Source: an uncultured Caulobacterales bacterium
GTDB taxonomy: Bacteria; Pseudomonadota; Alphaproteobacteria; Caulobacterales; Maricaulaceae
DNA length: 64,000 bases
Assembly: GCA_938009235.1 (NCBI GenBank)
Contig: CALLIK010000004.1
Span: 365,725 to 429,724 of the forward strand
Reading direction: 5' to 3'
The position numbers and the translations under genes were made by a program. Every line of letters starts with the position of its first letter. Position 1 is the stretch's first letter. Positions 2,205-21,968 of the stretch are shown piece by piece. The notes below the pieces were generated by a model, which did not search any database, was not told the origin of the DNA, and worked only from the letters and a program-made list of their open reading frames with translations.

Positions 2205-2291
2205 GCGAGTTTCTATTTTCGCGCTATGCGCCTGCCTTTACAAACAGGCAAGCTAAGAAAAGTCATATGACAGAGTGACGCAATCGAAGCA

Positions 2292-5888: not shown

Positions 5889-7868
5889 GACGACACGGAA
5901 CCGACCTTTGGTTTTTTGTCCCTTCTTATCAATCGCCGTTAATTCATAAAACCCAGGCGCAGAGGGCTTGAACCTAAACCCGTCACGCGTTTTGTGAATG
6001 GGATCAGAGCCCACATAGAGCCGCACGTCACTTGCTTCGGTTTGAACAACAAGATCAATGCCTTCGGACGCTGCACCAAATACGGATACCGCAATCTCAA
6101 TGTCGTCCATTGGGAATAAGATAACGGGCGCAAATTCTTCGGCGGACTTTAATCGGTCCTGTGTCTGTTGCGGACGATTTACGCGGACGACTTGATCTCC
6201 AACCGCGAGACCATCTGCAATTTTAAACAAGAGCGGCGCAGCTGCAGCGCGGCCCGTAACCCCAGGCCTTGGCCCTCCATCGGGTCGTCCAATCCAGACA
6301 ATAATTACGTAGTCACCAGATACAGCAGCAGCCCAGCTATCTCTAAAACCATATGATGTGCCCGTCTTGTAAGCCACGTCAGGCACATCACGCCCCAAAT
6401 GCATTGGCATCACACCTGCGGGTCTGGGCGCGTCGGCCATAACGCGACGGAGCGCCTTGGCTGTGTCAGCTTGTAAAAGTTCAAACGTGGGTTGCGGCAT
6501 CTCATCGGCTAAGGTCCATTTCAATGGCCCCGCCAGTCCATCATTCGCGATGGCAGTATAGAGCATTGCAAGGTCAGTTGCGCGGAGGCCCGTTCCGCCC
6601 AAAGCCAATGCGAGACCTGCATCTGAGCCATTTTCATTCGGACCGGATTGCGAAGGCGAAGCGCCCGAAGCTCGCAGTGCAGCATCAAGGCGGCGACCTC
6701 CAACATGATCAAGAACACCAACGGCGGGTATGTTCAAACTATGTTGCAGGGCTTGGGCTACTGTAACGTCCCCATAGTAACGTCTGTCAAAATTCTCAGG
6801 GCGATAACTGCCAAATCGACTCGGCGCATCGCGAAGCCGCGTGTCGGGTCCGATAATGCCGTCATCCATACCCAAGCCATAAACAAAGGGTTTTAGTGTT
6901 GATCCCGGTGATCTCACCGCAGCCGTCATATCCAACCATCCGCCATCATGATCGCGCCGACCAATGGCGGCATGGGCGCGAACTTCGCGGGTCTTAGCGT
7001 GAACAACGATTGCCGATGCGTTGACGGGGTGCGGGAGTTTCTCAACTGTGGCGGCCAACTGGTTTTCGATATTCGTTTGAAGATGTGGATCTAATGCGCT
7101 GCGCGTGACTGAGCCCGTCGCCGCCAATTTGCGGGCCGTCAACCAAGCGCGCTGTGGTAGTTTTTCCTTTTTCGAAGGAATAGATACGGTATCAGCATTT
7201 ATATACTCATTAGCCGTGATCAGTTCCGCTGACGCCAAACGTTTCAAAATGCGCCTTCGCCCTATTTTTGCGGCCTGTGCATTTCGGTCTGGCCGTCTGG
7301 CTTCAGGCGCTTGAGGCAAAGCAATCAAGAGAGCGATTTCATCTGGAGCGAGAAACCGTGGTGACTTGCCAAAGTAAATACGGCTCGCGGCATCAATACC
7401 TTCAATATTTCCGCCGTAACTTACGCGGGTCAAATATTGTTCGAGTATCTCTTGCTTAGTATAATGAAGTTCAAACCGTAGTGCCTCAAAGCTTTCGATA
7501 GCTTTCGATTTGAACGTTCGCGGACGCGGTTTGTATTGACGGACAAGCTGCATAGTCAGTGTTGATGCGCCAGATGAAGCTACACCGCTTTGCTTCCACG
7601 TCTTTAACGCGCGCAAAATGGCGGCGCCGTCCACACCCGAATGCGAATAAAACCGCTTGTCCTCAATCTCAATCAAAGCCTCGACAAAGGCAGGATCAAC
7701 AACATCCAAATCGGTCTTGATGCGCCAACGACCATTTTCGACAGTTCGCACATTTAGCCACGTTCCGTTGCGATCCGCCAACACGGGTGATGTCGTGTTG
7801 AGGTCAGCGTTTGAAACAGGCGCTTGCGCGAACCACAGGCCCATCGCAGCCGTAGCTGCAAGCGTCAT
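5856..7868 (-). CDS. pbpC: Penicillin-binding protein 1C (bifunctional transglycosylase/transpeptidase)
   Basis: GT51 motifs EDKRFYSHSGVD and GASTLTMQL; transpeptidase motifs SPGSTLKPF (SxxK) and KTGTS; a C-terminal beta-rich PbpC-type domain. It lies 22 nt downstream of the macroglobulin gene. Confidence 0.9.
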   Translation of the reverse strand: MTLAATAAMGLWFAQAPVSNADLNTTSPVLADRNGTWLNVRTVENGRWRIKTDLDVVDPAFVEALIEIEDKRFYSHSGVDGAAILRALKTWKQSGVASSGASTLTMQLVRQYKPRPRTFKSKAIESFEALRFELHYTKQEILEQYLTRVSYGGNIEGIDAASRIYFGKSPRFLAPDEIALLIALPQAPEARRPDRNAQAAKIGRRRILKRLASAELITANEYINADTVSIPSKKEKLPQRAWLTARKLAATGSVTRSALDPHLQTNIENQLAATVEKLPHPVNASAIVVHAKTREVRAHAAIGRRDHDGGWLDMTAAVRSPGSTLKPFVYGLGMDDGIIGPDTRLRDAPSRFGSYRPENFDRRYYGDVTVAQALQHSLNIPAVGVLDHVGGRRLDAALRASGASPSQSGPNENGSDAGLALALGGTGLRATDLAMLYTAIANDGLAGPLKWTLADEMPQPTFELLQADTAKALRRVMADAPRPAGVMPMHLGRDVPDVAYKTGTSYGFRDSWAAAVSGDYVIIVWIGRPDGGPRPGVTGRAAAAPLLFKIADGLAVGDQVVRVNRPQQTQDRLKSAEEFAPVILFPMDDIEIAVSVFGAASEGIDLVVQTEASDVRLYVGSDPIHKTRDGFRFKPSAPGFYELTAIDKKGQKTKGRFRVVSSQDVSHPGF

Positions 7869-7890: not shown

Positions 7891-10800
7891 TTAAAAATCT
7901 CCGCTTGGGGAAATTTCTAATTGCCCATACTCAGATGTGCCGACACGTGCAGGACGATACATGTCCTCGACAACGGCCCCAGGGAAGGTAAATGTACCTG
8001 CAGTCACCGCGCGGACAACATAGGCCGCCTTAAAGACATTACCCTTTCGGTCGTAACGAGATCGTCGACCCGAGGCGATAAATCTGTCATCTCGAGCTTC
8101 TTGCATATCGAATTTGGACAGCTCGCCGAGGAAACCATACGCCCCTTCACTTCCTGTATCTGCTGGGGTTAGAACAGTTTCAATTTCCAATCCTGCCGGC
8201 AATAAATCCGCGAGTACAACCATTCGATTAGATCTGTAGGTTGATTTAGCTGTGACGAGAATAATAGCACGATCACCGCGTTTGATCTCTGTGGAAATGG
8301 CTTTACCTTTCATGGTGTAGAGATGTTTTTCTACGGTAAAGCCACTGGATATGGCTTCAGGTGCCTGGGTCGGCGTGGAGGTTACGTCGATTGTGATATA
8401 GGCACGCGCGTCGCCCGTGTTTTCTATTGAAGGCTTACTCGCAATGTCGGTTCCGAGTAAATTCGCGGCGCCTTTTTCAAGAGACAGGTTTTTGGTCTTT
8501 ACGCTAACGTCGCCTTCACCAGAGCTAAGTTGCGCCATAGCTCTAATGATATAACTTTTTTCCTGAGTGTTGGTCCTGGATGGCTCAAGTTCTGCCAAAC
8601 CTAAAAGAATTTTCTCAGACACTTCGGCATCTAAGTTATTGCCGCCAATCGCTAAGAGAGCCGCGGCATTGCGCTCTGGCGAACTATAGTAGTTATAATG
8701 CTCTGTTTTAACGTCCAAACTGTCAGCGGCCCGTTTGAAGACAGCTTTTGCTGAGGCTTCGTCTCCTATTTTAGCCAACGCCGCGCCTAGATAAGCCAGA
8801 GAAATTGGGTCAGATATCCGATCCCCAAATGTTTTGTTGAGATAGCGAATACCAGAGGTATCTGCCTCACCCGCTAATGCGACGACATAATGCGCGTAAG
8901 CCGCCCGATTTGCACGCGCAACTTCGGCTTTTTTTTGCGAGTCAGAGTTAGGGAAATATAGATTCAGAGAAGAATGATTTTCCATACGAGAGAGTATTTT
9001 TGCCGCATTTATGGCTGACAACATGCTCTGTTCGTTGACGTCATATCCATTGCGGTCTGCCTCTATGAAGAACTCAGTGACATAAAGTTGGAGCCAAGGT
9101 CTTAAAGCTCTATCGCCCTGACGCCAGAGACCAAACTCTCCGGTCATATCCTGACGTGAGGATAGTTTCGCAATCGCGTCCTGAATACGGGTGCTCAGAA
9201 CTTTGTCCGATGTACCCTTAAACCCTCCGAGTGATTTCACGAACACAAGCGGCATTGCCTTACTGACGGTTTGCTCCGTACATCCATAAGGGTAACGGTT
9301 CAGTGACGCGAGATATGGCGCAACAGAAAGCCCAGGAAGGCGTGCCACGCTCAGGTCAATATCCGCGCCTGTAACACTGTAGCCGTCCATAAGGTCAGCC
9401 TTCAACGTATAGCTTTCGCCAGGTTCGATAGCTTTAATCGTGCGGTTCGTGATGGGCCTATAAGGGGACCGGACTTCAATTGGGTAGTCAGACTGAACCT
9501 TATAATCTTTGGGTCCAGTGATTGACGTTTTCAAATTATAAATCCCGACATCATCGGCATTCAAGGTGACACCCGTTTGGTCCCGCGTTCCTGGCGGAAG
9601 GTCAAACACAGACTCGATTGTTTTCAGCAACCCAACACCTTCAATAGATGTTCGGTAAACACCAGACGCTCCATCTATATTATCAAGCGCGAAGGTTGAT
9701 ACGGCTTGATCTCCAGGCGCGAGGAAACGCGGCAAGCCTAAATTAGCAGGAACAGCGTCCCTCACCTTTAAGGATGTCGACGCACTGCCGATTGACGACT
9801 TTGTCCAAGCCGTCGCCATAAGGCGCAGCTCTCCATTAAAGTCAGGTAGATCAAGCGTGATCACAGCTCGTCCATTTTTCACATCAACAGAGCCTTCAAA
9901 TAATGCGACAGTTTTGGTTGGAACAACAGAGAGTCCTGCGCCGCCAATCCCGTCACCGCCGCTTCGGGTTTTTCCATCGGCTAAGAACGGATTCAGGATG
10001 CGGCTGTAATCATCACGAATATCGAGCGCGAAAGCCTTCTTAGAAAAGAACGCATCAGAGGCATCGGGGGATTTAAAATTGGTCAGAGCTAAGATGCCCT
10101 CATCTACTGCGGCCAAACTCACCCACGCTTTTTCTCTCGCGCCGACGCCCGACAATTCGATTGGGACCTCCACTTGAGTTCGCGGTGACACGCGATCGGG
10201 TGTGTCGATTTTCAAATCAAGTGTTTGAGAAGAACGATCTAAAGCAATGTGAGTAAGACCAACGGCGCGTTTCACGCCTTTGCGTTTTTCAACATCAAGC
10301 GGCGTATAGAGAGTTACCATCGCATAGACGTCATGGCCCCAAGATGGATCATAAGGAATACGAACGGAGGACGCGCCTTCTGGGACATCAACGGTGCGAA
10401 TGGAGCGAACCGTATGGTCGGCAATCACAATATCTCCTCGGCCCGCATAAGGTGCACTCAAGTTTAAAGTCACAGCGCCGCCCGGTTTTGTTGGCAAGTC
10501 TGTTGCGCCAACTAAGATACGGTCTGGCGCATCACTGTCGCTATCACCCCAATTCGACCACCCCACACCAAAGCGATAAGAAGCGGTTTCACCAGTACTT
10601 GTTTTCACGTCCAAACGGTATCGACCCCAATTCAATGATCTTGACCAAACACTTAATGCTTCGGAGCCAATTGCCATTTCACCGCGATCAACAACTGTAT
10701 CTGTTGACTGGGTTCGGTACTGCCAACGATTGCGGGCGCGATACCAATTATAATCACGTCGTTCTTCATTTAGCGTCCAAGTGACCTGAGTAGAGATACG

Positions 10801-12843
10801 TTCACCCTCTGCATCAAGTGCTAGGAGTTCAATCTCAGCGGGTTTCAAACGAGACGCGCGTTCTCCAAATCGAGACTTAAAGCCTACATAGGTGTCTTGT
10901 CCGCGAATGGGGATGAAGATATTTTCTCTAACATATCGTCCGCCTGGTTCCGCGACGCCCGCAATGAATGATGCGCGCAATGGGTGAGAGGATTCTGCGT
11001 CGGATGCAGACAGCTTCACTTTGACAACGGCTTTACCCTCGTCATCTGTTTGCGGAACTTTCAGATCAATAACACGCTCACGGAAATCTTCTTTACTGTC
11101 ACCGAAGTCAAACTCTGCAAAGTCTTTGAACGGATTTGGATCTCTTTGAATTCTAAATTCAGATTCTGTCTCAAGGTTTGACCCTGGCGCGCCATAGTAA
11201 AACTGCGCATCAAGTGTAATTTCGCGCACTTCATCAGGGTGTAGAGTCGCTTGCTCTTCGGGACTAAGTGATAGCTTTAGTCTCTGCGGAACAAAGTCCT
11301 CCACCGAAATCGTTTCGTTGATTTTGGCATCTGTACCTTCAACAGACAGTTCAATGTCCCATTTACCGCGCGCGGCTTGAGATGGCAGATCAATGGATGT
11401 CACATATCCACCTGCATCCTCATCATCGAGCAAACGCGTTAGCTCTTCTACGCCGTCAGGTCGTAAAAGCTTTAGCGACAAGACACGGCCCTCTATCGCA
11501 TGTGCATAGGAATCGCGGAGCAACGCGGTTAAGTGAACGGTCTGCCCAGGGCGATAAATACCACGGTCAGTAAATGCATAGAGGTCGTAAGGCCCCGTAA
11601 CATCACGGCCCTGAACATCCATCACGGAGAGGTCGAGCGGAGCGCGTGACAGATCAAGCACAGCATAATCACCGTCTTCCCCATAAGCCATAATCATACG
11701 CGGTTTGAGCGGGCCAACACCTTCTAAGATCGCATTTTCAAAAACGGCGCGCCCTTGGCCATCTGTAATGACTTCTGCCAATTGTTCATTGTTACTGGCG
11801 ACAAGGTCCAATCGCACGCCAGATTTTAAGCGAGCATCTTTAATAGAGCGCACAGCCACATGAAGCGCGTCTGTTCCGCGATAACTCGACAGCGCAAGGT
11901 CGGTTGAAATAAGCCAGCGAATAGCTTGGGCGCTGCGGCGACGGGAGGTCCCTTCGACGACATGCTCAGCAATAAGAATATAAGCGCCGGGCCCCTGCTC
12001 CGTTATCTTGTCTTGTAAATCAAATGGCGTTTCGACGATGGCGTTGCGGTTTTCTAACACGTCGAGATCACCTGACCAGACTTCAACACGACTAGAACTG
12101 GCCTCATATGTACGTATATATTGACCGGCCGTACCGCCTTCGCCCTTGTTCGGCGAGTGTTGAGACAGAATTCGGTCGTTAACGCGAAACAATTTCAAGG
12201 AAAGTTGATCGACATTCACAGTCTTTAAAACAACCCGCGCGCCTTTTGTTTCAGGGAGAATAATACCTTCGCCTGAAAACCCGACAAAGGCAGGCTTATC
12301 TTCGAAGGTAAATATGACACGTTTGTTTGTCTGTAATGCGTTGCCCTCGTCAGACACGAGTCCTTTAAGGACGTCGGCACTGTAGCTTTGCCCATAGGCT
12401 AAACCCAAAATGCAAATTTTATTGGCCTTAGCATCAAGAGAGAATGGCGTCTTAGGCGTAATTCGGATGAAGGGTTTAAGTTGGGACTCTCTCGTCTCGA
12501 CGAAATCTGAATCAAAAGACAAACAGGCCTGTACGTCCCCATTCTGATCTTGAGTTTCCATTGAGAGGTAATGTAATGGATCGATAGTTGGTTCTTTGGG
12601 GGTTGGGTCGACAACGTCCACGATTGGAGGTTCAACACGCCTTGGAGCCTGCGGCATTCGTGAATCCTTAGATATTTTAGGTATCGCCGCGATAGGGTCG
12701 TCAATGACCACATCTACGAGTTGGGAACGCGCTGTAGTGTTATCACGAGCATTATGCGCGTCTGGAAATAGATGATACCCGACGACCCCCGCAAATATAA
12801 AGAGAAGAGCGCCCGCTAAAAACTTCACTACAGATATGTTCAT
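7891..12843 (-). CDS. Bacterial alpha-2-macroglobulin (YfhM/ECAM-type), membrane anchored
   Basis: 1650 aa with the thioester motif YPYGCTEQ (CTEQ codons at 9271-9282 on the minus strand). It has an N-terminal hydrophobic anchor and is paired with pbpC as in the known A2M-PBP1C operons. Confidence 0.9.
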   Translation of the reverse strand: MNISVVKFLAGALLFIFAGVVGYHLFPDAHNARDNTTARSQLVDVVIDDPIAAIPKISKDSRMPQAPRRVEPPIVDVVDPTPKEPTIDPLHYLSMETQDQNGDVQACLSFDSDFVETRESQLKPFIRITPKTPFSLDAKANKICILGLAYGQSYSADVLKGLVSDEGNALQTNKRVIFTFEDKPAFVGFSGEGIILPETKGARVVLKTVNVDQLSLKLFRVNDRILSQHSPNKGEGGTAGQYIRTYEASSSRVEVWSGDLDVLENRNAIVETPFDLQDKITEQGPGAYILIAEHVVEGTSRRRSAQAIRWLISTDLALSSYRGTDALHVAVRSIKDARLKSGVRLDLVASNNEQLAEVITDGQGRAVFENAILEGVGPLKPRMIMAYGEDGDYAVLDLSRAPLDLSVMDVQGRDVTGPYDLYAFTDRGIYRPGQTVHLTALLRDSYAHAIEGRVLSLKLLRPDGVEELTRLLDDEDAGGYVTSIDLPSQAARGKWDIELSVEGTDAKINETISVEDFVPQRLKLSLSPEEQATLHPDEVREITLDAQFYYGAPGSNLETESEFRIQRDPNPFKDFAEFDFGDSKEDFRERVIDLKVPQTDDEGKAVVKVKLSASDAESSHPLRASFIAGVAEPGGRYVRENIFIPIRGQDTYVGFKSRFGERASRLKPAEIELLALDAEGERISTQVTWTLNEERRDYNWYRARNRWQYRTQSTDTVVDRGEMAIGSEALSVWSRSLNWGRYRLDVKTSTGETASYRFGVGWSNWGDSDSDAPDRILVGATDLPTKPGGAVTLNLSAPYAGRGDIVIADHTVRSIRTVDVPEGASSVRIPYDPSWGHDVYAMVTLYTPLDVEKRKGVKRAVGLTHIALDRSSQTLDLKIDTPDRVSPRTQVEVPIELSGVGAREKAWVSLAAVDEGILALTNFKSPDASDAFFSKKAFALDIRDDYSRILNPFLADGKTRSGGDGIGGAGLSVVPTKTVALFEGSVDVKNGRAVITLDLPDFNGELRLMATAWTKSSIGSASTSLKVRDAVPANLGLPRFLAPGDQAVSTFALDNIDGASGVYRTSIEGVGLLKTIESVFDLPPGTRDQTGVTLNADDVGIYNLKTSITGPKDYKVQSDYPIEVRSPYRPITNRTIKAIEPGESYTLKADLMDGYSVTGADIDLSVARLPGLSVAPYLASLNRYPYGCTEQTVSKAMPLVFVKSLGGFKGTSDKVLSTRIQDAIAKLSSRQDMTGEFGLWRQGDRALRPWLQLYVTEFFIEADRNGYDVNEQSMLSAINAAKILSRMENHSSLNLYFPNSDSQKKAEVARANRAAYAHYVVALAGEADTSGIRYLNKTFGDRISDPISLAYLGAALAKIGDEASAKAVFKRAADSLDVKTEHYNYYSSPERNAAALLAIGGNNLDAEVSEKILLGLAELEPSRTNTQEKSYIIRAMAQLSSGEGDVSVKTKNLSLEKGAANLLGTDIASKPSIENTGDARAYITIDVTSTPTQAPEAISSGFTVEKHLYTMKGKAISTEIKRGDRAIILVTAKSTYRSNRMVVLADLLPAGLEIETVLTPADTGSEGAYGFLGELSKFDMQEARDDRFIASGRRSRYDRKGNVFKAAYVVRAVTAGTFTFPGAVVEDMYRPARVGTSEYGQLEISPSGDF

Positions 12844-12927
12844 TTCGGACCCCGACCTTTTCTTCTGTAAACTGAATATAGATGATTCGTGTCTAGATTA
12901 GGGCTAATCTTTGGCTTTAAATCGTTT

Positions 12928-12997
12928 GCTTTATGGTGACCCAGTCAAGTTCATAACAATAGGTTAACCTTTAATTTTCAGCTTTAGTTGACCCAGT
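12928..12997 (+). repeat. Direct repeat GCTTTA-N2/3-TGACCCAGT (two copies 53 bp apart) in the divergent intergenic region
   Basis: gctttatggtgacccagt lies at 12928-12945 and gctttagttgacccagt at 12981-12997. The 9-mer tgacccagt is exact in both copies. A third gcttta lies at 12914-12919. Confidence 0.5.
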
Positions 12998-13016
12998 TTC
13001 CTTACGTCGATGAAAT
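12988..13016 (+). promoter_or_regulatory. Candidate sigma70-type promoter for the 13092 gene (TTGACC-N17-TGAAAT)
   Basis: TTGACC lies at 12988-12993, followed by a 17-nt spacer and TGAAAT at 13011-13016. This is about 75 nt upstream of the ATG, and the -35 element lies inside repeat copy 2. Confidence 0.35.
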
Positions 13017-13091
13017 ACACCAATGTTAGCACAGTGGGGACCAGGTGGATGATCCTGATCAAAATGGGAAAAACTTTGGGAAATTAATAAA

Positions 13092-13958
13092 ATGTCTTTT
13101 AAAAAACTTGCTTTAACGGGCGGTGTTGCCGCTTCTTTGATGGCGTCTACGGCCTATGCATCCGTAATCGATCGTCCTTTCTTTCAAGTCTTAGGTGTCG
13201 TGGTCGTCTGGGGTGCAGATGACGCTGCATCTGCAGCACCTGTCGTCTCCGATTTCGTCTTACTGACCCCCGCATCTGGCAGCGCTGGCGCAGACCTTAT
13301 TGCAGGTAATGTAAGCACTGTTATTACAGGGTCTTTGACACCTGTTGCAGGCGGCTCAACTGCGGCCACATCAACGATTGACCCTATTACAGGCGAAACA
13401 AGCACAGCGACTTACGCAGACGCAGCGGGTGCTGGTGCAGGACTTCTTGATGCAACAGATACATTGTCTGCTTTCGGTATTGATGGAAATACAGATGTAC
13501 AAGCTTTGACAGCTTCACACACAAGCAGCTTCTTTGTCGCATCTAACGCTGCATTCGACATCTACGCTGTTGCTGGAAACCTAACTAAGACGGGTGACTT
13601 CTCTGCGGACGCAGACATCGGTCTTGAAGACATTACACTGTCTATGTCGCTACAAGCTGGTGCAGCTCAAACTGTCGGTACGCTAAATTATGGCGCTAAC
13701 TCACAGGTACCAGGTACATTTGATAATGGCCTCGATGTTGGTGAAACACTCGATAACCTAACGACGGCTGTTGCTGGCGCAAATGGCTTGAAAGTCTTTG
13801 ATGGTACGCAGCGTACTGCGGCTACTCCAGGGTCGTTGGCTGACCAGTCTGTTCGTTTCGACAACGTCTACGACTTCGGTGGACCAAACGGGTATGACCT
13901 TTCAATGGGTTCAGGTACAATTTCTGCCGACGTAACTTACACAATCTTCGTCCCATAG
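13092..13958 (+). CDS. Secreted acidic Ala/Gly/Thr/Ser/Asp-rich protein of unknown family (paralog of 21123-21968)
   Basis: Sec signal MSFKKLALTGGVAASLMASTAYA|S. There are no Cys residues and the composition is low-complexity but non-repetitive. It shares co-linear blocks with the 21123 protein: LLDATDTLSAFG, NTD, SHTSSFFVAS, TGDFS and YDLSMGSGTISADV. A rho-independent terminator follows. Confidence 0.7.
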   Translation: MSFKKLALTGGVAASLMASTAYASVIDRPFFQVLGVVVVWGADDAASAAPVVSDFVLLTPASGSAGADLIAGNVSTVITGSLTPVAGGSTAATSTIDPITGETSTATYADAAGAGAGLLDATDTLSAFGIDGNTDVQALTASHTSSFFVASNAAFDIYAVAGNLTKTGDFSADADIGLEDITLSMSLQAGAAQTVGTLNYGANSQVPGTFDNGLDVGETLDNLTTAVAGANGLKVFDGTQRTAATPGSLADQSVRFDNVYDFGGPNGYDLSMGSGTISADVTYTIFVP

Positions 13959-14015
13959 GCGACGAATAGACTTCATATAGACAAGCGTTTTCACGCACGC
14001 TTTGTTTCAATGATT

Positions 14016-14046
14016 GGCCGCTCCCTCGGGAGTGGCCTTTTCTTTG
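14016..14046 (+). terminator. Rho-independent terminator after the 13092 gene
   Basis: GGCCGCTCC-CTCG-GGAGTGGCC forms a 9-bp stem with one G.U pair and a tetraloop. It is followed by TTTTCTTTG. Confidence 0.75.
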
Positions 14047-14050
14047 CGTC

Positions 14051-14419
14051 CTATTCAGACCGTAAACGTCGCATATCGTCTTTATACTCCCATCGGATGA
14101 TTTCATCCAAAACGAGTGAGATACGGTATTCTAGTTTTTCGACGGCCACTTCACGTGCGCCTGGACGGCAATCATCACCAATCAGTGTTTCAGCGCCATC
14201 GCATAAAGTCGCAAGTTCCATTGCCCCTACGGCTCTGGCGGACCCTTTCAGGGAATGCGCGACACTTGACCAAACCACATCATCCGAATCCGCGCGCAGC
14301 CCACGGCCCCACATTTCAACTTGGTTCCTAAATAGGCCAAAGACTTCCCGAGTAAGATCGGGATCCCCGTCTACATATTGGTTCAAATGGTCGAAATCAA
14401 TTTCAGGTGAATCAGTCAT
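14051..14419 (-). CDS. Stand-alone histidine phosphotransfer (Hpt) domain protein
   Basis: Carries the Hpt phosphorylation motif AHSLKGSARAVGA. The likely start is MTDSPEIDF at 14419; the ORF-track start at 14449 adds 10 unlikely residues. Confidence 0.8.
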   Translation of the reverse strand: MTDSPEIDFDHLNQYVDGDPDLTREVFGLFRNQVEMWGRGLRADSDDVVWSSVAHSLKGSARAVGAMELATLCDGAETLIGDDCRPGAREVAVEKLEYRISLVLDEIIRWEYKDDMRRLRSE

Positions 14420-14449
14420 TACTGTAGATACTAGACATCCGCGACGCAT

Positions 14450-15628
14450 ATGTTAGCGGTTTTTATGGATTATTTTTCTCAGACAAATATTGGCGAATCA
14501 CGGTGGTGGTCATGGGTCGGAGTGACGTGGTTGGCATTTGTCGGATGGGTAATTTTTCAAACTATCTTACTGTTTCCATTTCCAATCATCGCAAATTTTA
14601 CAGATCCGCCTTTATTTGAAAGTCTAATGCAGGCTTTTACTGAGTCTGCTGCAACTGAAACATCGCCGGAACTCGGAATTTATTCGTTATTATTCGGCTT
14701 GTCTGCAACGCTAGCTGCTATGGTCGGTTTAGCACTTAACGGTAGAGCCAGAGTCATGACTATGATGTTCACACTCATGGCTATCGTCGGTTTTATCATT
14801 ACATCACGACTGGCATCACAAGGGTCTGAAAGTTCGTTGATAATGGATGTTATTGGCCAAATTATGGGCGCATCACCTCTAGCCTTCGGACTTTTCCTGC
14901 TGACCTTTCCAACGGGATTGATTGTTCTCTATGTCTGCCAGAAACACGTACATAAGCGCACGATCACCTCGCTTCATACAGCCGCGAGTAGCTTTAGGTT
15001 ACCTCGGGTTTTCGAAGGCTTCCTTTTGACATGGTTGGTTCTCGGTGTCTTTACATTCGTAGCGAATGCACTTGGCATCATTGAGGTAAAGTATATTTTC
15101 GCGGGTGGGACGTTCTGGATTTACGCCCTCGTCTCCCTTCTCTTCATTCCACTTCAATCAGCAACAGAAGAAATCGTGTTTCGCGGTTACTTCAACCAAG
15201 GCCTTACACATGTATTAAAAAACAAGTGGTTAGCGTTCGCGATTACGTCACTAGCTTTCATGGCCTTGCATCTTTCAAACCCTGAAGCCCTCCAAGGCTC
15301 AGCCTCTGGTACACTACCTATCGTGATGAGCGGCTATTTCTTCTTTGGCTTTGCGATGTGTTTGATTGTCTGGCTTGACGATGGCTTAGAGACTGCAATC
15401 GGAATCCACGCGGGTAATAACTGTTTTGCTGCGATTATCATGAATTATGAAAATTCAGTCCTGCCAACGCCTTCAGTTTTCTTGACGGGTACCGACCCGG
15501 TCAAAGACTCTATATCAACGGTTCTCGTACTCGGAACCCTCGTTGCGGTTATATGGTGGCGTCGCGGCGGGCCAAAACGTGACGACCCTGACTTGTCAAA
15601 CGACAAACCATCCATTGCGGACGCATAG
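14450..15628 (+). CDS. CPBP-family intramembrane glutamic endopeptidase (CAAX protease/Abi fold)
   Basis: Polytopic membrane protein with the three CPBP motifs: TEEIVFRGY (EExxxR), FMALHLSN (FxxxH) and IHAGNN (HxxxN/D). Confidence 0.85.
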   Translation: MLAVFMDYFSQTNIGESRWWSWVGVTWLAFVGWVIFQTILLFPFPIIANFTDPPLFESLMQAFTESAATETSPELGIYSLLFGLSATLAAMVGLALNGRARVMTMMFTLMAIVGFIITSRLASQGSESSLIMDVIGQIMGASPLAFGLFLLTFPTGLIVLYVCQKHVHKRTITSLHTAASSFRLPRVFEGFLLTWLVLGVFTFVANALGIIEVKYIFAGGTFWIYALVSLLFIPLQSATEEIVFRGYFNQGLTHVLKNKWLAFAITSLAFMALHLSNPEALQGSASGTLPIVMSGYFFFGFAMCLIVWLDDGLETAIGIHAGNNCFAAIIMNYENSVLPTPSVFLTGTDPVKDSISTVLVLGTLVAVIWWRRGGPKRDDPDLSNDKPSIADA

Positions 15629-15818
15629 GGCTTGAAAACCACGGTTCGGCAAGACCTTTTTCGATTGCAGACTTTACAATATTGGGATCAATGGGTTCAC
15701 CAAATTGATCAAATAACGCCAATCGACTGTCAGCTCGATTAAGGCCTCCTGACAGCCACGCATTTAGTTCCGCATCTGAAAAACGTGCAGCCGCACGCGA
15801 TCGATTGATCGTTACCAT
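15549..15818 (-). CDS. Possible small hypothetical protein (about 89 aa)
   Basis: ORF starting MVTINRSRAAARFSDAELNAWL.... It fills an otherwise empty 318-bp gap, but its 3' end overlaps the CPBP gene by 80 nt on the opposite strand. No motif was recognised and the RBS is weak. Confidence 0.25.
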   Translation of the reverse strand: MVTINRSRAAARFSDAELNAWLSGGLNRADSRLALFDQFGEPIDPNIVKSAIEKGLAEPWFSSPMRPQWMVCRLTSQGRHVLARRDATI

Positions 15819-15946
15819 TATAAAACCCAGCCCATTCACATTGCCGGAGACAATAAAAAATACGATCTTCGCCGCTTTCCCCGTACACAAGGCTCTGATA
15901 GGGCAAAGTATGAAATATCCCGTTAAACGAAAACATTTTAACGAGG

Positions 15947-17986
15947 ATGCAGAGGATTGACGTGTCAGATATAACTAAGAAAATTTTCTCTATTGAACCG
16001 GTTGATGCGGTTAAAGATGTGGAACCTAAGAGCCCAGACATCATTAAACCGGTCAGTAGGCCATCTCTGAGATTGACGGCTGTTGCGCCGAAAGAGGATA
16101 TTGCCACCGAGAAAGTTCCCGATTTTGTGACGCGAGAGGAGATCAAGCCCTTAACCCGGTCACCCGCTCCTGTTTGGGAAGAGGCTGAAACCAGGTCTAA
16201 AGGTTGGGTTTTTTGGTCAATTATAGGATTCAGTATCCTATACATCGCAGCAATTGGTTTGTTTTTTGGCATGCCCTTACTAAATATTGCGCCAAATTTA
16301 CTTACAATAACGGGCCTTGTTCTCCTGCTGATCCTACCCATTGTGCTCCTAATAGTGCTGGGCACAGCCCTTCGAAACCTAGGTCGGCTAAGTCAACAGA
16401 CCCTAAGGTACGCACAAGCTGCAGAAATTCTTGTCACACCAGAAACAGAGGCGCTAGGACGCGCGACAACACTGGCAGGAGCGATCCAAACTGAAATTTC
16501 AAAATTCAATCAACAACTCGAAACGACTGTAGGCGCCTTAAAAAAGGTTGAAACCTCTGTCTCTCTTGAGAGCCAAGCTCTCGACGCTGCGGGGTTGCAA
16601 CTATCTAGTCGCTCCGAAGATGTAGGACGCAACCTAACTTTACAAAGACAAGCCCTCGAAAGCATATCTGGGACATTTGATGCCCGCATGGGAACATTAT
16701 CAGCTCAAATTACTGAGACGAGCAAAGAATTAGAAAATGTCTGCGTCGAAGCAGAAACCCGTCTGTCAAAGGCTGGCGGAAGCTTGATGGAAACAACCGC
16801 TCAAACTGAGACCCATATTACTGCAAGTACGAAACAAATTACTGAGGAAATTGCTGCATTAGGTGAAGTAAACAGCAAAATCGAAACAACTTCAGAGACC
16901 ATGAGTTCAGATTTAGTAAAATCAGCGGAAAAGCTTCAAAAGCTTCAAACAAAACTGGATGAGCGCGCAGAAGCACTAGAAATGCTAAGCACAGGTACAG
17001 TAAGTCAGATTACAAACCTTCAAACAACACTCGACCATGGCAATCAAATGCTGTCTGATTTTCAATCGGCGGCTGATCTAAGGGAGTCTGAAATGACACA
17101 CCTTTATGATCGCTTGTCTCTTCAACTTAAAAAATCTGAAGACGACACCCTTGCGTCTCAAGGACAAACCGCACGTGTCGTTGAGGCCAATCTTTCGCAA
17201 ATGCGTCGAGATTTTGGACAAATGGAAACGGACCTAAAAACCCTTCAGGTTAAGCTAAATAATCTTAGAGAACATGCGGACGAATTACCTGCGCCCGAAG
17301 TCAAACCTTCCCGGTTAAATCTTACTCCGTTATCGTCTGATTTCCCACCTGTAGAACCTCCCCGTCAAGCCGTTAAACGTGAGCCACTAGGTCTAAGGCA
17401 TACACCCTTCGACCTTGATGCTGATATGGAGCTTGAAATACCAGCTGACGAAATCGCTGACATTATTCCTGAGGTTAACCCAGACGTTATTTCACGGCCA
17501 GGACAACCGGTTTCGTCAAAAAAGGGATTTGGTCGCAGAAATGACAAAGAATCTAGCGGATGGAAGTGGCGCGATATGTTGGGCGGATTAGAGAAGCCAG
17601 GATCTGTCCCTGGAGCGGCAAACCTTACATCACCTCAGACTGCAGACTCTACATCAATCAATATAGTTGAACGCCTCAACGCCTTAAAGTTATCACCGTC
17701 AGCTTTTGTTGATGAAGGTACAGTCATTGACGCAACACAAGCTAGAATTAACGCGGGCGCGGCAGGTCTTGCTTCAGTCGTGGTCGAACGTTTGCCAGAT
17801 GCCGTTGCGCATCTGAAGGGCCACATGTCTGTGAACATGAGCCTCGCAAACGAGGTCAAACACTTCGCTGACAGTTTTGCCACTACAATCGCGAGCACCC
17901 CGCCTACAGCTCCAGCCCTGAGGGCGGCTTTAGGTTCACCTGACGGAAGAGCGTACCTTCTGTGTGAAGCCGCTCTAAAGGGGTAA
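15947..17986 (+). CDS. Membrane-anchored long coiled-coil protein of unknown function
   Basis: 679 aa. The N-terminus is charged, followed by two hydrophobic segments (WVFWSIIGFSILYIAAIGLFFG and LLTITGLVLLLILPIVLLIVLG). About 300 aa of Q/E/T/S/L-rich heptad-like sequence follows, then a Pro-rich linker and a conserved-looking C-terminal globular part. Confidence 0.8.
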   Translation: MQRIDVSDITKKIFSIEPVDAVKDVEPKSPDIIKPVSRPSLRLTAVAPKEDIATEKVPDFVTREEIKPLTRSPAPVWEEAETRSKGWVFWSIIGFSILYIAAIGLFFGMPLLNIAPNLLTITGLVLLLILPIVLLIVLGTALRNLGRLSQQTLRYAQAAEILVTPETEALGRATTLAGAIQTEISKFNQQLETTVGALKKVETSVSLESQALDAAGLQLSSRSEDVGRNLTLQRQALESISGTFDARMGTLSAQITETSKELENVCVEAETRLSKAGGSLMETTAQTETHITASTKQITEEIAALGEVNSKIETTSETMSSDLVKSAEKLQKLQTKLDERAEALEMLSTGTVSQITNLQTTLDHGNQMLSDFQSAADLRESEMTHLYDRLSLQLKKSEDDTLASQGQTARVVEANLSQMRRDFGQMETDLKTLQVKLNNLREHADELPAPEVKPSRLNLTPLSSDFPPVEPPRQAVKREPLGLRHTPFDLDADMELEIPADEIADIIPEVNPDVISRPGQPVSSKKGFGRRNDKESSGWKWRDMLGGLEKPGSVPGAANLTSPQTADSTSINIVERLNALKLSPSAFVDEGTVIDATQARINAGAAGLASVVVERLPDAVAHLKGHMSVNMSLANEVKHFADSFATTIASTPPTAPALRAALGSPDGRAYLLCEAALKG

Positions 17987-18069
17987 AACACTGCCTCAAC
18001 TAAGCGGTAACACATCCCCTTCATCGCTATCGCCTTGCCCTTACTCAACTGTCGGCTTATGCCCGCGAC

Positions 18070-19113
18070 ATGACAGATACTGATGGCACATGGGAGACCC
18101 GCACAGCGGAAAATGGCGACGACGGACAGCGTTTAGATAAATGGCTGTCTAGCTGGACTGAATTGTCCCGTACGCGTATTCGCGCCCTCGTAGAAGGCGG
18201 ACACGTTCGAGCGAATGGAGACATCGTCCTCAAAGTCACGTCAAAAGTACGTCCTGAGATCGAATATGCCGTGCGCGTCCCGCCGCCTGTGGATGACACG
18301 CCTCTACCTGAAGACATTCCACTCGATATATTATTTGAAGATGACCACCTCATTGTCTTGAATAAACGATCTGGAATGACAGTTCATCCCGCTCCAGGCT
18401 CTCGCAATGCGACGCTTGTGAATGCATTGCTTTTTCATTGCGCAGATACCCTCTCGGGCATTGGCGGCGTTATGCGCCCCGGTATTGTGCATCGCCTAGA
18501 TAAAGACACCTCAGGCGTTATGATCGCCGCAAAATCAGACAAGGCACATCAAGGACTCTCAAAGCAATTCGCCAAACATTCCATCGACCGCATTTATACA
18601 TGCTTTGTCCGAGGCGTTCCTAAGCCTCGTTCAGGGCAAATCGCGTCTCGACTTGCGCGGTCTCCCAATGACAGAAAGAAACAGTCTGTTGTTCGCGGAA
18701 CATTTGACGACATTGATGCCTCAGAGGTTGGGCGCCATGCCGTCACCCATTATAAATTCATCAAAGGGTTCGGACAGGCTCAACATGCGAGCATTGGCAC
18801 CCCAAAAGTAAGTCAGCTGGATTGTCAGCTTGAGACGGGCCGAACGCATCAAATTCGCGTTCATCTAACACATATCGGCTGTCCTCTGCTAGGTGACCCG
18901 CTTTACGGCAAACAACGTGCCTATGCGTCATCAAATCATCCTGCTGAAGAAGCCGTAAGGATCGCCGTTGCAGCGTTCAAACGACAAGCTCTACATGCTC
19001 GACATCTTGGTTTCATACATCCTGTCACCAAGGAACATATGAGCTTTGACGCGCCCTTACCGCCTGACATGCAGCACCTCTTAGACGTGTTCACTGACCT
19101 ACCGATCACATAG
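18070..19113 (+). CDS. rluD: 23S rRNA pseudouridine synthase, RluA family (RluD-like)
   Basis: An N-terminal S4-like segment and the catalytic motif HRLDKDTSG, with the downstream pattern GRTHQIRVHL. Confidence 0.9.
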   Translation: MTDTDGTWETRTAENGDDGQRLDKWLSSWTELSRTRIRALVEGGHVRANGDIVLKVTSKVRPEIEYAVRVPPPVDDTPLPEDIPLDILFEDDHLIVLNKRSGMTVHPAPGSRNATLVNALLFHCADTLSGIGGVMRPGIVHRLDKDTSGVMIAAKSDKAHQGLSKQFAKHSIDRIYTCFVRGVPKPRSGQIASRLARSPNDRKKQSVVRGTFDDIDASEVGRHAVTHYKFIKGFGQAQHASIGTPKVSQLDCQLETGRTHQIRVHLTHIGCPLLGDPLYGKQRAYASSNHPAEEAVRIAVAAFKRQALHARHLGFIHPVTKEHMSFDAPLPPDMQHLLDVFTDLPIT

Positions 19114-19139
19114 TTGTTAAAAAGAGTTCAGACCCAAAC

Positions 19140-19168
19140 CTTTTAAACCTGTTATATATTCCCCATAT
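19140..19168 (+). promoter_or_regulatory. Candidate sigma32-type (heat-shock) promoter of rpoH
   Basis: CTTTTAA at 19140-19146, a 14-nt spacer, then CCCCATAT at 19161-19168. This is compared with the sigma32 consensus CTTGAAA-N13-15-CCCCATNT. A GAGGGAG RBS lies at 19178-19184 and the ATG at 19194. Confidence 0.5.
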
Positions 19169-19193
19169 TAGTCCGCTGAGGGAGCTTTTTCTA

Positions 19194-20150
19194 ATGACCA
19201 AAACTAAAAACAAGACGCTGACAACAAAGACATCAGCAAGAGATGCCACTTACACTGGTAATATGAAGTTGTCCGTGGCGCTCTCTCCAGAACAAGGCCT
19301 GAACTCCTACCTTCAAGAAATCCGCAAATTCCCAATGTTGGAAAAAAACGAAGAATTCCGCCTCGCGAAACGTTGGGTCGAAGATGGTGATACAGCTGCA
19401 GCAGAGAAAATGGTGACATCACATCTGCGCCTCGTCGCTAAAATCGCGATGGGCTACCGCGGATATGGCCTTCCCATTGGCGAAGTCATTTCCGAAGGTA
19501 ACGTTGGCCTCATGCAAGCCGTCAAGAAATTTGACCCTGATAAGGGCTTCCGCGTTTCGACATATGCAATGTGGTGGATTCGTGCCGCTATCCAAGAATA
19601 TGTTCTACGCTCTTGGTCCCTCGTCAAAATGGGGACAACTGCGGCTCAGAAAAAACTCTTTTTCAACCTACGCCGAATGAAGGGCGAAATGAAAGCCTTA
19701 GAAGAAGGCGACCTCCGTCCAGAACATCTAACAAAAATCGCGACAGATCTTGGCGTGAAGGAATCGGAAGTCACATCCATGAATCGGCGCATGTCTGGCG
19801 GCGGCGATAGCTCCCTCAATGTGACCATCGGCGGCGATGATGGATCCGCGCAATGGCAAGATTGGTTGACGGACGAGTCTGAATCTCAAGAGGAAACCCT
19901 CGGGCACAGCCAAGAGCATGAGGCACGCATGGCCCTCCTTCAGGATGCTATGTCAGATCTTAACGAGCGTGAACGAGACATCATTTCAAAGCGCCGTTTA
20001 GCTGAGAAGCCAATGACACTAGAAGACTTAGCTAAAATCTACAAAGTTTCACGAGAGCGTATCCGCCAGATCGACGCGCGTGCCTTTGAGAAACTCCAAG
20101 CCGCTATGGTCGCTGCTGCAGCAGCTGGCCCGGGATTGTTAGAAAACTAG
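19194..20150 (+). CDS. rpoH: RNA polymerase sigma-32 factor
   Basis: 318-aa sigma70-family protein with the RpoH box QKKLFFNLRRMK and region 2 and 4 patterns. Confidence 0.95.
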   Translation: MTKTKNKTLTTKTSARDATYTGNMKLSVALSPEQGLNSYLQEIRKFPMLEKNEEFRLAKRWVEDGDTAAAEKMVTSHLRLVAKIAMGYRGYGLPIGEVISEGNVGLMQAVKKFDPDKGFRVSTYAMWWIRAAIQEYVLRSWSLVKMGTTAAQKKLFFNLRRMKGEMKALEEGDLRPEHLTKIATDLGVKESEVTSMNRRMSGGGDSSLNVTIGGDDGSAQWQDWLTDESESQEETLGHSQEHEARMALLQDAMSDLNERERDIISKRRLAEKPMTLEDLAKIYKVSRERIRQIDARAFEKLQAAMVAAAAAGPGLLEN

Positions 20151-20185
20151 ACCTTACACTGCACGTAATGGCCACACAGGCCATG

Positions 20186-20210
20186 ACAATTTAATGCGTG
20201 ATTAAATTGT
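20186..20210. promoter_or_regulatory. Perfect 10-bp inverted repeat ACAATTTAAT-N5-ATTAAATTGT
   Basis: acaatttaat lies at 20186-20195, the spacer gcgtg follows, and attaaattgt lies at 20201-20210. The site sits between the rpoH stop and the 20300 gene, about 90 nt upstream of that ATG. Confidence 0.45.
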
Positions 20211-20299
20211 AAAGTCAGAAGCTACGGAAAATTAACCGAGACGAAAGCCTTTTTTGGCACCCTGATAAGACGATAACACGACTAATCTGGGATAATCAT

Positions 20300-21136
20300 A
20301 TGTTTCGCTCTCGAACGCTTTTGGCTTTGGCCTGTAGTTCTGCCCTAATTGCAGCCATATCATACTCGCCCTTAGCGAAAGCTTTTGGCGTAGGCGTTCA
20401 GCCTTCAACAGTAGAAATGACGATAAAGCCCGGTGACCGACAGCGGCAAATTGTTACGGTCGGGAATGTTCACAAAACTAAGACCATTAGCCTGACTATG
20501 GGTTTGGCCGATTGGTCCCTAGATGAAAACGGCAAACTGATTTTAGACGCGCCAGGTGACACAACTCGGTCTGCGGCCGAATGGGTTCGTTTTTCGCCTG
20601 CTGCCGTTACCTTAAAACCAGAAACATCTCAGGATATTACGGTCGAGATCGATGCGCCTTATAAAATCAAAGAAAAGGGAGATCATCGTTTTGCTCTTCT
20701 AGCAACGACCATGTTGCCAGAGCTTGATGATCGCGGCGAAGTCTCTGGTGTTTGGAACCGGTATCAGCTGGCCTCACTCTTCTATCTTACGCTTACGCCC
20801 TCCAAAAGCCTCCCTGAGGTCACAAGTGTGGCTTTGAGTTCTACTGAGCCTGGGCTTGTAACTATGCAGATCAAGAATGATGGCGATGCTCATGCCCGAT
20901 TGCAGGGCACAGCCGTTTTGAAGGACAACGAAGGCGAGGTCTTAGCAGAAACACCTCTAAACGCTGTCATACTTGATGGCGGCAAACGTACCTATAACAT
21001 CACCCTTAAAGACATGGCTGAATTAGACACAGGTGACTACACGATCGATTTTGATCTCAACAATACATTTGCGCCGCAGAATAAGTTTAGAGCTACAAAT
21101 GTTCCTGTTGATTCACTGAATTATGTCGCGAAGTAA
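20300..21136 (+). CDS. Secreted two-domain Ig-like beta-sandwich protein (PapD-chaperone-like / DUF916-like), function unknown
   Basis: Signal peptide MFRSRTLLALACSSALIAAISYSPLAKA|F. The first module is VQPSTVEMTIKPGDRQRQIVTVGNVHKTKTISLTM...WVRFSPAAVTLKPETSQDITVEIDAP. The second module is LVTMQIKNDGDAHARLQGTAVLKDNEGEVL...GDYTIDFDL. It overlaps the next gene by 14 nt. Confidence 0.7.
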   Translation: MFRSRTLLALACSSALIAAISYSPLAKAFGVGVQPSTVEMTIKPGDRQRQIVTVGNVHKTKTISLTMGLADWSLDENGKLILDAPGDTTRSAAEWVRFSPAAVTLKPETSQDITVEIDAPYKIKEKGDHRFALLATTMLPELDDRGEVSGVWNRYQLASLFYLTLTPSKSLPEVTSVALSSTEPGLVTMQIKNDGDAHARLQGTAVLKDNEGEVLAETPLNAVILDGGKRTYNITLKDMAELDTGDYTIDFDLNNTFAPQNKFRATNVPVDSLNYVAK

Positions 21137-21968
21137 GATAATATTATTGGCGGGGGTTGCCCTCGTCTCTATTGCCTCAAACGCACAAGCTAGTTTTTTG
21201 GATACAGACTTCTGGTGCCGCACATATGGTTGTGCGGTAGTCCATGACGGCCAAAATTACGACATCTACGATAACTATCTATTTTCCACGAGTTCATGTT
21301 GCGTAGCTGTTGGAGGGCAAATGATAGGTTTTTACCTGAGAGCAGACAACACGAATATAACAGGAGAGATAGGTGGGAGTGGCTCAAATGGCCCAAACTC
21401 AGACCAGAGCTTCATGTTGGGTATATCCCAAGACGGTGAGAACATTAGTCTATCTGGAAATGATGATGGCGACGGATATCTCGATGCAAGTGATACATTT
21501 GGCGCATTTTCACTTAACCCGAACACAGATATCCTTCTAGATGGCCCTGGAAAATCTTACTCGCACAGCTTCTTTATATCGTCCCGTAATTCTGAATTTA
21601 GCCTTAGAGCCTTGGCTTCAATTGCCACTGTGACAGGCGATTTCTCTAGTACCATCCAACTCGGCGACATCAAATTGACTCCTAGCATTTCAGCGTCAGG
21701 TAATGACGGTGGATTTCAATATGGCGCAAGCGCGAATACGGCGAATATCATGATTGTAAGCGGTGTGGATGACCTTGGCGACCTCACAGGTATTCCTACG
21801 CAAATTATGAATTTTGGTCGAGCAGAAGGCATTCGCAACGGTAATGGCGACATTAATGAGCAAGCCATCCGACTCGACTTCCTCTACGAAATGCCAAACT
21901 ATGATCTCTCAATGGGTATTGGCAGTTTGAACGTAGATGTTGCGTTTGATTTCTACCGCGAGAATTAG
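21123..21968 (+). CDS. Secreted acidic Gly/Ser/Asn/Asp-rich protein, paralog of 13092-13958
   Basis: Signal peptide MSRSKIILLAGVALVSIASNAQA|S. It has a 4-Cys N-terminal segment. Shared blocks with 13092: YLDASDTFGAFS, NTD, SHSFFISS, TGDFS and YDLSMGIGSLNVDV, at nearly the same residue numbers. Confidence 0.7.
   Translation: MSRSKIILLAGVALVSIASNAQASFLDTDFWCRTYGCAVVHDGQNYDIYDNYLFSTSSCCVAVGGQMIGFYLRADNTNITGEIGGSGSNGPNSDQSFMLGISQDGENISLSGNDDGDGYLDASDTFGAFSLNPNTDILLDGPGKSYSHSFFISSRNSEFSLRALASIATVTGDFSSTIQLGDIKLTPSISASGNDGGFQYGASANTANIMIVSGVDDLGDLTGIPTQIMNFGRAEGIRNGNGDINEQAIRLDFLYEMPNYDLSMGIGSLNVDVAFDFYREN

Follow-up and report, generated by a model that had tools for sequence, protein, structure and literature searches.

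An uncharacterised three-gene module for exported proteins conserved in marine Caulobacterales

We analysed a 64,000-nucleotide stretch of DNA, referred to below as the window, from an uncultured Caulobacterales bacterium of the Maricaulaceae (contig CALLIK010000004.1 of GenBank assembly GCA_938009235.1, positions 365,725 to 429,724 of the forward strand). The window carries three genes, here called A, C and B, which belong to a real, conserved, lineage-restricted and uncharacterised three-gene module (Table 1). A and B are paralogues, and C, which immediately precedes B, encodes a protein that is modeled as two immunoglobulin (Ig)-like domains. An earlier note on this DNA had described A as the solitary, orphan copy of a small secreted-protein family and B as the copy paired with C, and had proposed protein C as a handling factor shared by both.

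The paralogous proteins A and B

The two-copy paralogy of A and B extends over their full length. BLASTP with compositional adjustment aligns residues 1–286 of A co-linearly with residues 1–278 of B (72.8 bits, E=2e-19, 29% identity, 46% positives), and in cross-comparison with hidden Markov models (HMMs) protein A scores 77 bits on the B-group HMM and protein B scores 106 bits on the A-group HMM. The similarity that the earlier note had observed is real, and the blocks on which it was based all lie at the residue numbers it had given: LLDATDTLSAFG at residues 118–129 of A corresponds to YLDASDTFGAFS at residues 119–130 of B, and the other common blocks include NTD, TGDFS (at 167 in A and 171 in B) and YDLSMG (at 268 in A and 260 in B). 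An alignment of 131 sequences from both groups contains 22 invariant columns, among them L119, A121, D123, F128, Y268, D269, S271, G273 and G275.

Within the N-terminal thirds, which had been taken to be unrelated, the divergence between A and B is limited to residues ~43–115; the signal peptides align, as does the start of the mature proteins over ~20 residues (SVIDRPFFQVLGVVVVWG for A, SFLDTDFWCRTYGCAVVHDG for B). D27 and G35 do not vary in either paralog group, and F30, V38 and V39 hardly do. This mature N-terminal block is the most conserved block of each group (0.97 in A and 0.90 in B), and the idea of diversified, exposed N-terminal regions is not supported. The variable parts of the proteins are residues ~81–115 and, in A, additionally residues ~161–240. 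Residues 37–42 of A are modeled as a strand by AlphaFold2 (AF2), and the segments common to A and B include this N-terminal strand as well as a C-terminal strand; the N-terminal strand may act as a donor strand.

All three proteins begin with what read as ordinary Sec-type signal peptides ending in A-x-A, and are probably processed there and exported to the periplasm; the consensus of the A/B family keeps this site. Export to the periplasm, and not secretion as the note had it, is what can be read from the sequences. Mature A has a mass of 26.3 kDa and a pI of 4.05, and the pI of mature B is likewise 4.05. Protein A consists to 48% of Ala, Gly, Thr and Ser and has no Cys, and B has four Cys, as the note had seen; these lie at positions 32, 37, 59 and 60 and are invariant in all 57 aligned B-group sequences. 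The public record of the B protein of the window comprises only 215 residues (P0155, start at ~21321), and three close relatives (P0193, P0222 and P0229) are called short likewise, apparently from Met 67. Since the 281-residue form of B, with its signal peptide, invariant N-terminal motif and Cys residues, is kept in more than 100 homologues, the shorter calls look like start-site errors, and the public gene calls for B are corrected here. Two other assignments were considered for these proteins and rejected. Lipidation of C at Cys 12 conflicts with the family consensus, in which this Cys is not conserved, and the residues that precede it do not fit a lipobox. An outer-membrane β-barrel is not consistent with the model of A, which is a compact β-sandwich, nor with the C-termini of A (...IFVP) and B (...YREN), which have no terminal aromatic residue.

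Searches of Pfam and NCBIfam with A and B matched no family, and single-sequence and profile searches of PDB sequences gave no meaningful match, so the signature formed by the common blocks does lack a named family, as had been supposed. None of the 131 aligned members matched WxL (PF13731), SCPU, DUF4402 or Peptidase_M73 even at E<=10; a relationship to SCPU, DUF4402 or WxL was rejected on these grounds, and with it the prospect that the family would map by sequence onto one of these characterised domains. PADLOC also gave no match, and a link to anti-phage defence through the neighboring alpha-2-macroglobulin (A2M) gene was thereby dropped. Homology searches returned 277 homologues of A, with E-values down to 1e-138 and, among the matches listed, a coverage of 100% for most. 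The family, whose spread and copy number the note had suggested mapping by iterative search, is small: a profile search of 1.84 billion representative proteins found 244 clusters (50% identity) at E<=1e-3. Where members are named at all in the sources, they are called 'hypothetical protein'.

The family is restricted to marine Caulobacterales of the Hyphomonadaceae/Maricaulaceae type. A scan of one genome per species found 73 loci, all in marine Caulobacterales, namely in Litorimonas, Algimonas, Hellea, Robiginitomaculum, metagenome-assembled genomes (MAGs) of Maricaulaceae and Hyphomonadaceae, Henriciella, Hyphomonas and a few Pseudomonadota MAGs; as the scan used one N-terminal peptide pattern, this range is a lower bound. 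Fretibacter joins it through the homologue search and its locus. Members of Litorimonas, Fretibacter and Hellea live attached to surfaces in the sea, and several were described from macroalgae.

Gene order and transcription units

The fetched loci were classed with group-specific HMMs, and 39 loci that bear A had sufficient downstream flank for the gene order to be evaluated. In 18 of the 39 the order A-C-B is uninterrupted, including loci whose A protein is only 37–47% identical to that of the window. In Robiginitomaculum, for example, a contiguous A-C-B cluster lies next to an A2M gene on the minus strand, with C and B proteins that are 64% and 57% identical to those of the window. A is split from C-B by 5–9 kb in seven loci (the window, L005, L006, L007, L010, L020 and L030), and in the remaining 14 loci C does not occur within at least 5 kb of A. 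In all 56 evaluable cases the gene directly after C is B. All seven split loci have the same genes in the same order between A and C-B, namely Hpt, CAAX protease, a 679-residue protein, RluD and RpoH. In Hellea and Fretibacter the cluster occurs as two halves that are far apart, one consisting of PbpC-A2M and, divergently, A-Hpt-CAAX-p679, and the other of RluD-RpoH-C-B-SufA; the distance between A and C-B is 50 kb in Fretibacter. The simplest history is that an ancestral, contiguous A-C-B cluster was later split by rearrangement, with the window representing an intermediate stage. The status of A as an orphan does not hold, given the 18 contiguous clusters and the five-gene insertion in the seven split loci. 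The proposal of C as a shared handling factor is strengthened by the contiguity of A-C-B, by the constant pairing of C with B and by the chaperone- and WxLIP-like fold described below.

The A2M gene divergently adjoins A in 23 of 40 informative loci, and it is missing from the most divergent A-C-B clusters, so we treat this adjacency as possibly inherited synteny. In Henriciella and Hyphomonas, only C and a B-type gene are present within the fetched loci. Loci of this kind are L051, L054, L055, L058–L062, L070–L073 and L077 (Henriciella and Hyphomonadaceae, within the fetched flanks). The B-type proteins of L051, L054, L059 and L073 have two Cys rather than four, and the CxxxxC pair is kept in the B-type proteins of Henriciella and Hyphomonas. 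An A2M gene lies 6–7 kb downstream in these loci on the opposite strand, with PbpC adjoining it where this was checked (L054), and the macroglobulin linkage thus recurs with another geometry. Two unusual arrangements were also seen. In L014, a Hellea chromosome, tandem A-type genes (7998–8873 and 9022–9834) lie beside A2M, and the MAG contig L053 carries an inverted duplicate of the pair, B-C followed by C-B (263–3718), in which an assembly artefact is possible.

The reading frames of C and B share 14 nt at their junction, an overlap that points to translational coupling. A is followed by its own intrinsic terminator, and terminators also follow A in the contiguous loci L002 (10892–10917) and L034 (8923–8951); this arrangement thus characterises the module and did not arise through the split. 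The note had called A monocistronic with a strong terminator; the terminator is confirmed, and the single-gene unit is not a consequence of A being an orphan. The note had also claimed a candidate promoter for A. A strict sigma-70 scan of positions 12844–13091 found no promoter, but a promoter-like block, TTGACC-N17-TGAAAT, is conserved in seven orthologous upstream regions; it failed the scan because the −10 hexamer has no A at position 2. Pilus operons typically have the order subunit, terminator, chaperone and second subunit, with the major subunit transcribed separately and in excess.

Some further features of the A transcript were noted. Only 4 nt separate the terminator of A from the stop codon of Hpt, a convergent gene, and it may therefore serve both transcription units. 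A GC-rich stem-loop is possible in the leader of A (13041–13058, ~35–50 nt before the start codon). By eye, a GC stem of 4–6 bp with differing sequence (CAGG/CCTG, CCGGG/CCCGG, CCGG/CCGG or ACGGGG/CCCCGT) can be drawn in each of seven orthologues, and the invariant CTTTGGGA comes after it. RNAalifold did not recover this hairpin and found no compensatory pairs, and a search of the A leader and trailer against Rfam found no riboswitch or other known RNA, the only match being a sub-threshold one to radC within the coding region.

Table 1. Features of the A, C and B genes and their surroundings in the window (window coordinates)
Feature	Position	Strand	Description
Gene A	13092–13958	+	288 residues; Cys-free, acidic, exported; proposed major or abundant subunit
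Signal peptide of A, Sec-type	13092–13160	+	MSFKKLALTGGVAASLMASTAYA, AYA|S site; read from the sequence, probable cleavage
Most conserved segment of A	13161–13217	+	SVIDRPFFQVLGVVVVWGA, residues 24–42; candidate N-terminal donor or complementing β-strand
Promoter-like block 5' of A	12988–13016	+	TTGACC, 17-nt spacer, TGAAAT
Intrinsic terminator after A	14016–14047	+	hairpin 14016–14037 with 9-bp stem (7 GC pairs) and 4-nt loop; T-rich tail
Gene C	20300–21136	+	278 residues; exported, two predicted Ig-like domains; proposed periplasmic chaperone or holder for A and B
Gene B	21123–21968	+	281 residues; exported paralogue of A with four invariant Cys; proposed minor subunit
6.3-kb block between A and C-B	13959–20299		not counted as part of the module
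Hpt	14051–14449	-	within the 6.3-kb block (Pfam)
CAAX protease	14450–15628		within the 6.3-kb block (Pfam)
679-residue protein	15947–17986	+	within the 6.3-kb block
RluD-like gene	18070–19113		within the 6.3-kb block (Pfam)
RpoH-like sigma factor	19194–20150		within the 6.3-kb block (Pfam)
A2M (bacterial alpha-2-macroglobulin)	7891–12843	-	1650 residues; divergent from A
PbpC	5856–7868		downstream of A2M

Predicted folds and relation to known assembly systems

The AF2 model of C comprises two β-sandwich domains and has a mean predicted local distance difference test (pLDDT) score of 81.7. The best PDB fold matches obtained with Foldseek are the WxLIP of E. faecium, both free and WxL-bound (9i1y and 9i25; E about 2e-10, TM-score about 0.4), followed by archaic, alternative and classical pilus chaperones (CsuC, CfaA, EcpB, FimC, PapD and Caf1M; E 1e-9 to 1e-6). 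These matches have a probability of 1.00 and target-normalised TM-scores of 0.42–0.57 (0.46–0.57 for the chaperones). Weak Pfam matches among the 72 C homologues are to fn3_5 in all 72 and to WxLIP_PGBD (PF06030) in 38, with a best E of 6.6e-5, and one homologue is labelled 'P pilus assembly chaperone PapD' by the Joint Genome Institute (JGI). The invariant residues of C concentrate in its first strand (residues 29–40) and in a long hairpin (residues 127–159), the tip of which is poorly modeled (mean pLDDT 54 for residues 141–150, and below 50 at residues 149–152). This hairpin parallels that of WxLIP and the G1 strand of the PapD-type chaperones, in which the A1 and G1 strands bind the subunit. 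AlphaFold2 predicts that the WxLIP hairpin gains order and completes the sandwich of WxL (PMC10599100). The C protein ends in ...NKFRATNVPVDSLNYVAK, without a hydrophobic segment, and its model ends in β-strands.

The model of A has a mean pLDDT of 74, with a value of about 90 for residues 141–288. Its best PDB fold match is the TasA fibre 8aur_A (E=2.2e-4, probability 1.00). Further matches include TLP-1a/b, PapE, the Saci_0406 thread, the pilin domain of PapG, FimG, CfaB, PapK, archaeal bundling pili, FimA and PapA, interspersed with GH123 β-sandwich domains; the pilin-like matches have E-values of 0.07–0.5, and the GH123 N-terminal and CBM-type sandwiches have E-values of 0.01–0.5. In this list of predicted fold matches donor-strand fibre subunits take the lead, and as the TM-scores of A are low (0.27–0.38, with 0.29 and 0.38 for 5of1), the likeness is suggestive and not proof.

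We read A, C and B as a module of the cell envelope in which a chaperone serves two subunits without an usher, an interpretation that we consider about evenly balanced. A and B are paralogous and very acidic, carry Sec-type signal peptides and are predicted to be β-sandwich proteins. After their export to the periplasm they would both be bound by C, whose first strand and long hairpin would donate or edge-pair a β-strand and so complete or shield the sandwich of A or B. The conserved N-terminal strand of A and B would then displace C, linking the subunits with each other or with an anchor. Its own promoter-like block and terminator would make A the abundant subunit, and the coupling of B to C together with the conserved and presumably disulfide-forming CxxxxC pair would make B the minor one, acting as nucleator, tip or anchor. 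With no usher, assembly would be periplasmic or wall-associated, or the product would leave the cell by some other route. The paralogy, the export signals, the synteny, the operon structure, the fold similarity of C and the lack of an usher at the loci are observed, and from them are inferred the binding of A and B by C, strand complementation, polymerisation, stoichiometry and cellular location. A more specific version, in which a PapD/WxLIP-type chaperone hands TasA-like subunits into a fibre or sheet by usher-independent donor-strand assembly, possibly triggered by Ca2+, is put forward tentatively, as a possibility with a clearly smaller chance of being right.

Several observations weigh against a chaperone with fibre subunits. 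The WxLIP_PGBD matches of the C homologues are below the gathering score and this match is absent for C of the window. PapD_N and PapD_C (PF00345 and PF02753) are not among the Pfam matches of window C at E<=1, nor among the 25 commonest of the 34 Pfam families matched by the 72 C homologues at E<=0.1. The C profile found no chaperone or WxLIP match among PDB sequences, and the C model also resembles RbmA-type two-domain matrix proteins, which are not chaperones, at lower TM-scores. In the model of A the N-terminal 130 residues are of low confidence, and 8aur superimposes on it with TM-scores of 0.27 and 0.32 and a root mean square deviation of 8.9 Å; at the sequence level neither A nor B could be linked to TasA (Peptidase_M73), WxL, SCPU or a pilin family. 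No usher or other outer-membrane component was found among the large open reading frames (ORFs) of the window or in the flanks examined at 13 diverse members of the 73 loci. Beyond the genes of Table 1, the window has large ORFs for YhdP, a topoisomerase IV/gyrase subunit A protein, SpoT and an SLT protein, and the flanks contain no conserved large neighbor except an SdrD_B-domain protein, UvrA and similar proteins. The literature on usher-less PapD-like systems yielded nothing usable. The combination of such a partner fold with such subunit folds in a diderm that has no usher at the locus is unusual, and the mechanistic evidence comes from fold predictions of moderate quality.

Three known systems were compared with A-C-B, and it is not filed as a member of any of them; by analogy it would work most like a chaperone-assisted donor-strand system. 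With chaperone-usher pili it shares the two-Ig-domain boomerang fold of the chaperone, as seen in the AF2 model of C, a conserved, hydrophobic strand at the N-terminus of the subunits that has a Gly in its middle, a conserved C-terminal strand, and the operon order of major subunit, terminator, chaperone and minor subunit. It differs in having no usher and no PapD_N, PapD_C or pilin Pfam matches, and A and B, at about 260 residues, are roughly double the size of typical pilins. The Arg 8/Lys 112 pair of PapD-type chaperones was not identified in C.

The TasA superfamily, compared here through B. subtilis TasA, the archaeal bundling pili, the Saci_0406 threads, AbpX and the cannulae, provides the top fold match of A and likewise has a conserved strand directly after the signal peptide. 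The acidic, Asp-rich A and B proteins of a marine organism also recall its calcium-dependent members (bioRxiv 10.64898/2026.01.04.697558). The superfamily has been reported from Bacillota, Actinomycetota, Chloroflexota and archaea (bioRxiv 10.64898/2026.01.04.697558; PMC9674648), and its survey does not mention Pseudomonadota (bioRxiv 10.64898/2026.01.04.697558). TasA-type systems rely on SipW and TapA, or need no chaperone for assembly, and use no partner that resembles PapD or WxLIP. A and B, on the other hand, have no detected sequence similarity to the superfamily, the A-x-A sites of their signal peptides are ordinary and they are not accompanied by any accessory gene; no SipW-type signal peptidase was found among the neighbors of A-C-B in the window and the 13 loci.

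The third comparison leads to the main alternative, which we regard as unlikely, namely that A-C-B is a non-filamentous, Gram-negative counterpart of the WxL/WxLIP complexes, in which a periplasmic C protein on the peptidoglycan holds A and B, perhaps together with envelope protection by A2M and PbpC. In the Gram-positive WxL clusters a WxLIP, consisting of DUF916, DUF3324 and a transmembrane helix, goes together with a small and a large WxL protein (PMC10599100, PMC9772566), and the commonest layout is that of one partner with two WxL paralogues (PMC10599100). A-C-B has the same composition of one two-Ig-domain protein and two related β-rich exported proteins, in agreement with the definition of a WxL cluster as a single WxLIP-type gene with at least two partner genes (PMC10599100); a long hairpin in the first Ig domain, signal peptides on all components and the absence of an usher are also common to both. 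WxLIP ranks ahead of the pilus chaperones in the fold matches of C, but its defining C-terminal transmembrane helix is missing from C, and the similarity of C to the DUF916 domain (PF06030), weakly matched in 38 of the 72 homologues, is sub-threshold by sequence. A and B, moreover, have a single Trp each, no W-x-L motif and no match to PF13731, and the 50 best fold matches of A do not include the WxL chain of 9i25. The host is a diderm alphaproteobacterium, and the binding of WxLIP to peptidoglycan is itself only predicted (PMC10599100). A role for A2M would agree with the position of A divergently beside A2M-PbpC in 23 of 40 loci and with the distance of about 6–7 kb between C-B and the A2M gene in Henriciella and Hyphomonas; the adjacency is missing, however, in 17 of the 40 loci, including the most divergent A-C-B clusters, and may be synteny inherited within one clade.

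A weaker possibility, which we consider less likely still, is that A acts independently of C and B as a stand-alone β-sandwich of the periplasm or surface, for example binding carbohydrate or calcium or forming a coat resembling a surface layer, and that the adjacency of the genes is a relic of tandem duplication. A does have its own promoter-like block and terminator, but separate transcription of the major subunit is normal for pilus operons. It lies far from C-B in 14 loci, as in Fretibacter with its separation of 50 kb, and the Henriciella and Hyphomonas loci have C-B with no A-type gene nearby; against this, 18 loci spanning a deep divergence retain A-C-B in the same order and orientation, with A proteins only 37–47% identical to that of the window. 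The matches of A to GH123 N-terminal and CBM-type folds (E 0.01–0.5) would suit a binding protein, whereas the segments common to A and B, an N-terminal and a C-terminal strand, are those expected of interaction elements. Finally, the biased composition of A (48% Ala, Gly, Thr and Ser) and the antisense ORFs that overlap it might suggest a chance similarity or a spurious ORF, a view that is refuted, with next to no probability left to it, by the compositionally adjusted E of 2e-19, the 277 homologues with E-values to 1e-138, the 22 invariant columns over 131 sequences and the conserved synteny.

Three settings of donor-strand assembly are known: the chaperone-usher pili of diderms, which use a chaperone and an outer-membrane usher, the TasA-type fibres of monoderms and archaea, whose assembly involves either no chaperone or TapA, and the WxL/WxLIP complexes of Firmicutes, which are still poorly understood. 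If the usher-independent reading of A-C-B is correct, the module would be an evolutionary and mechanistic bridge between them. It would bear on how strand complementation of the chaperone type works without an usher and on where in the diderm cell such assembly takes place, as well as on whether WxLIP-type proteins are ancestral chaperones. The analysis also names and delimits three uncharacterised protein families, and the genetic unit is testable in the cultivable genera Litorimonas, Fretibacter and Hellea.

Neighboring genes

The A2M protein next to A has Pfam matches to bMG3, MG2, bMG5, bMG6, A2M_BRD and bMG10, and PbpC has matches to Transgly, Transpeptidase and BiPBP_C. The 679-residue protein of the block between A and C-B has no Pfam match; it is kept beside the Hpt and CAAX-protease genes in loci of Litorimonas, Fretibacter and Hellea.

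Eight loci, belonging to several genera, carry a convergent gene for a large protein of ~1000–1150 residues immediately downstream of B, in each case on the minus strand (L004:11046–14420, L032:10906–14295, L033:12625–16068, L034:12261–15572, L035:4830–6491, L044:10884–14126, L047:9607–12648 and L064:8569–11916). The three proteins that were scanned (L033, L034 and L047) contain Cu_amine_oxidN1-like, SdrD_B and CarboxypepD_reg domains. The window contains no homologue of this protein, which could be a further partner of the module, for example a large surface protein.

A 28-nt block, TATAGATGATTCGTGTCTAGATTAGGGC, lies at 12877–12904 and is found, on the minus strand, 34–61 nt upstream of the A2M start codon. 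The window, L005, L006, L007 and L012 (Algimonas) have it in nearly identical form, and the flanking DNA is less alike. The block may be a promoter, operator or leader element of A2M.

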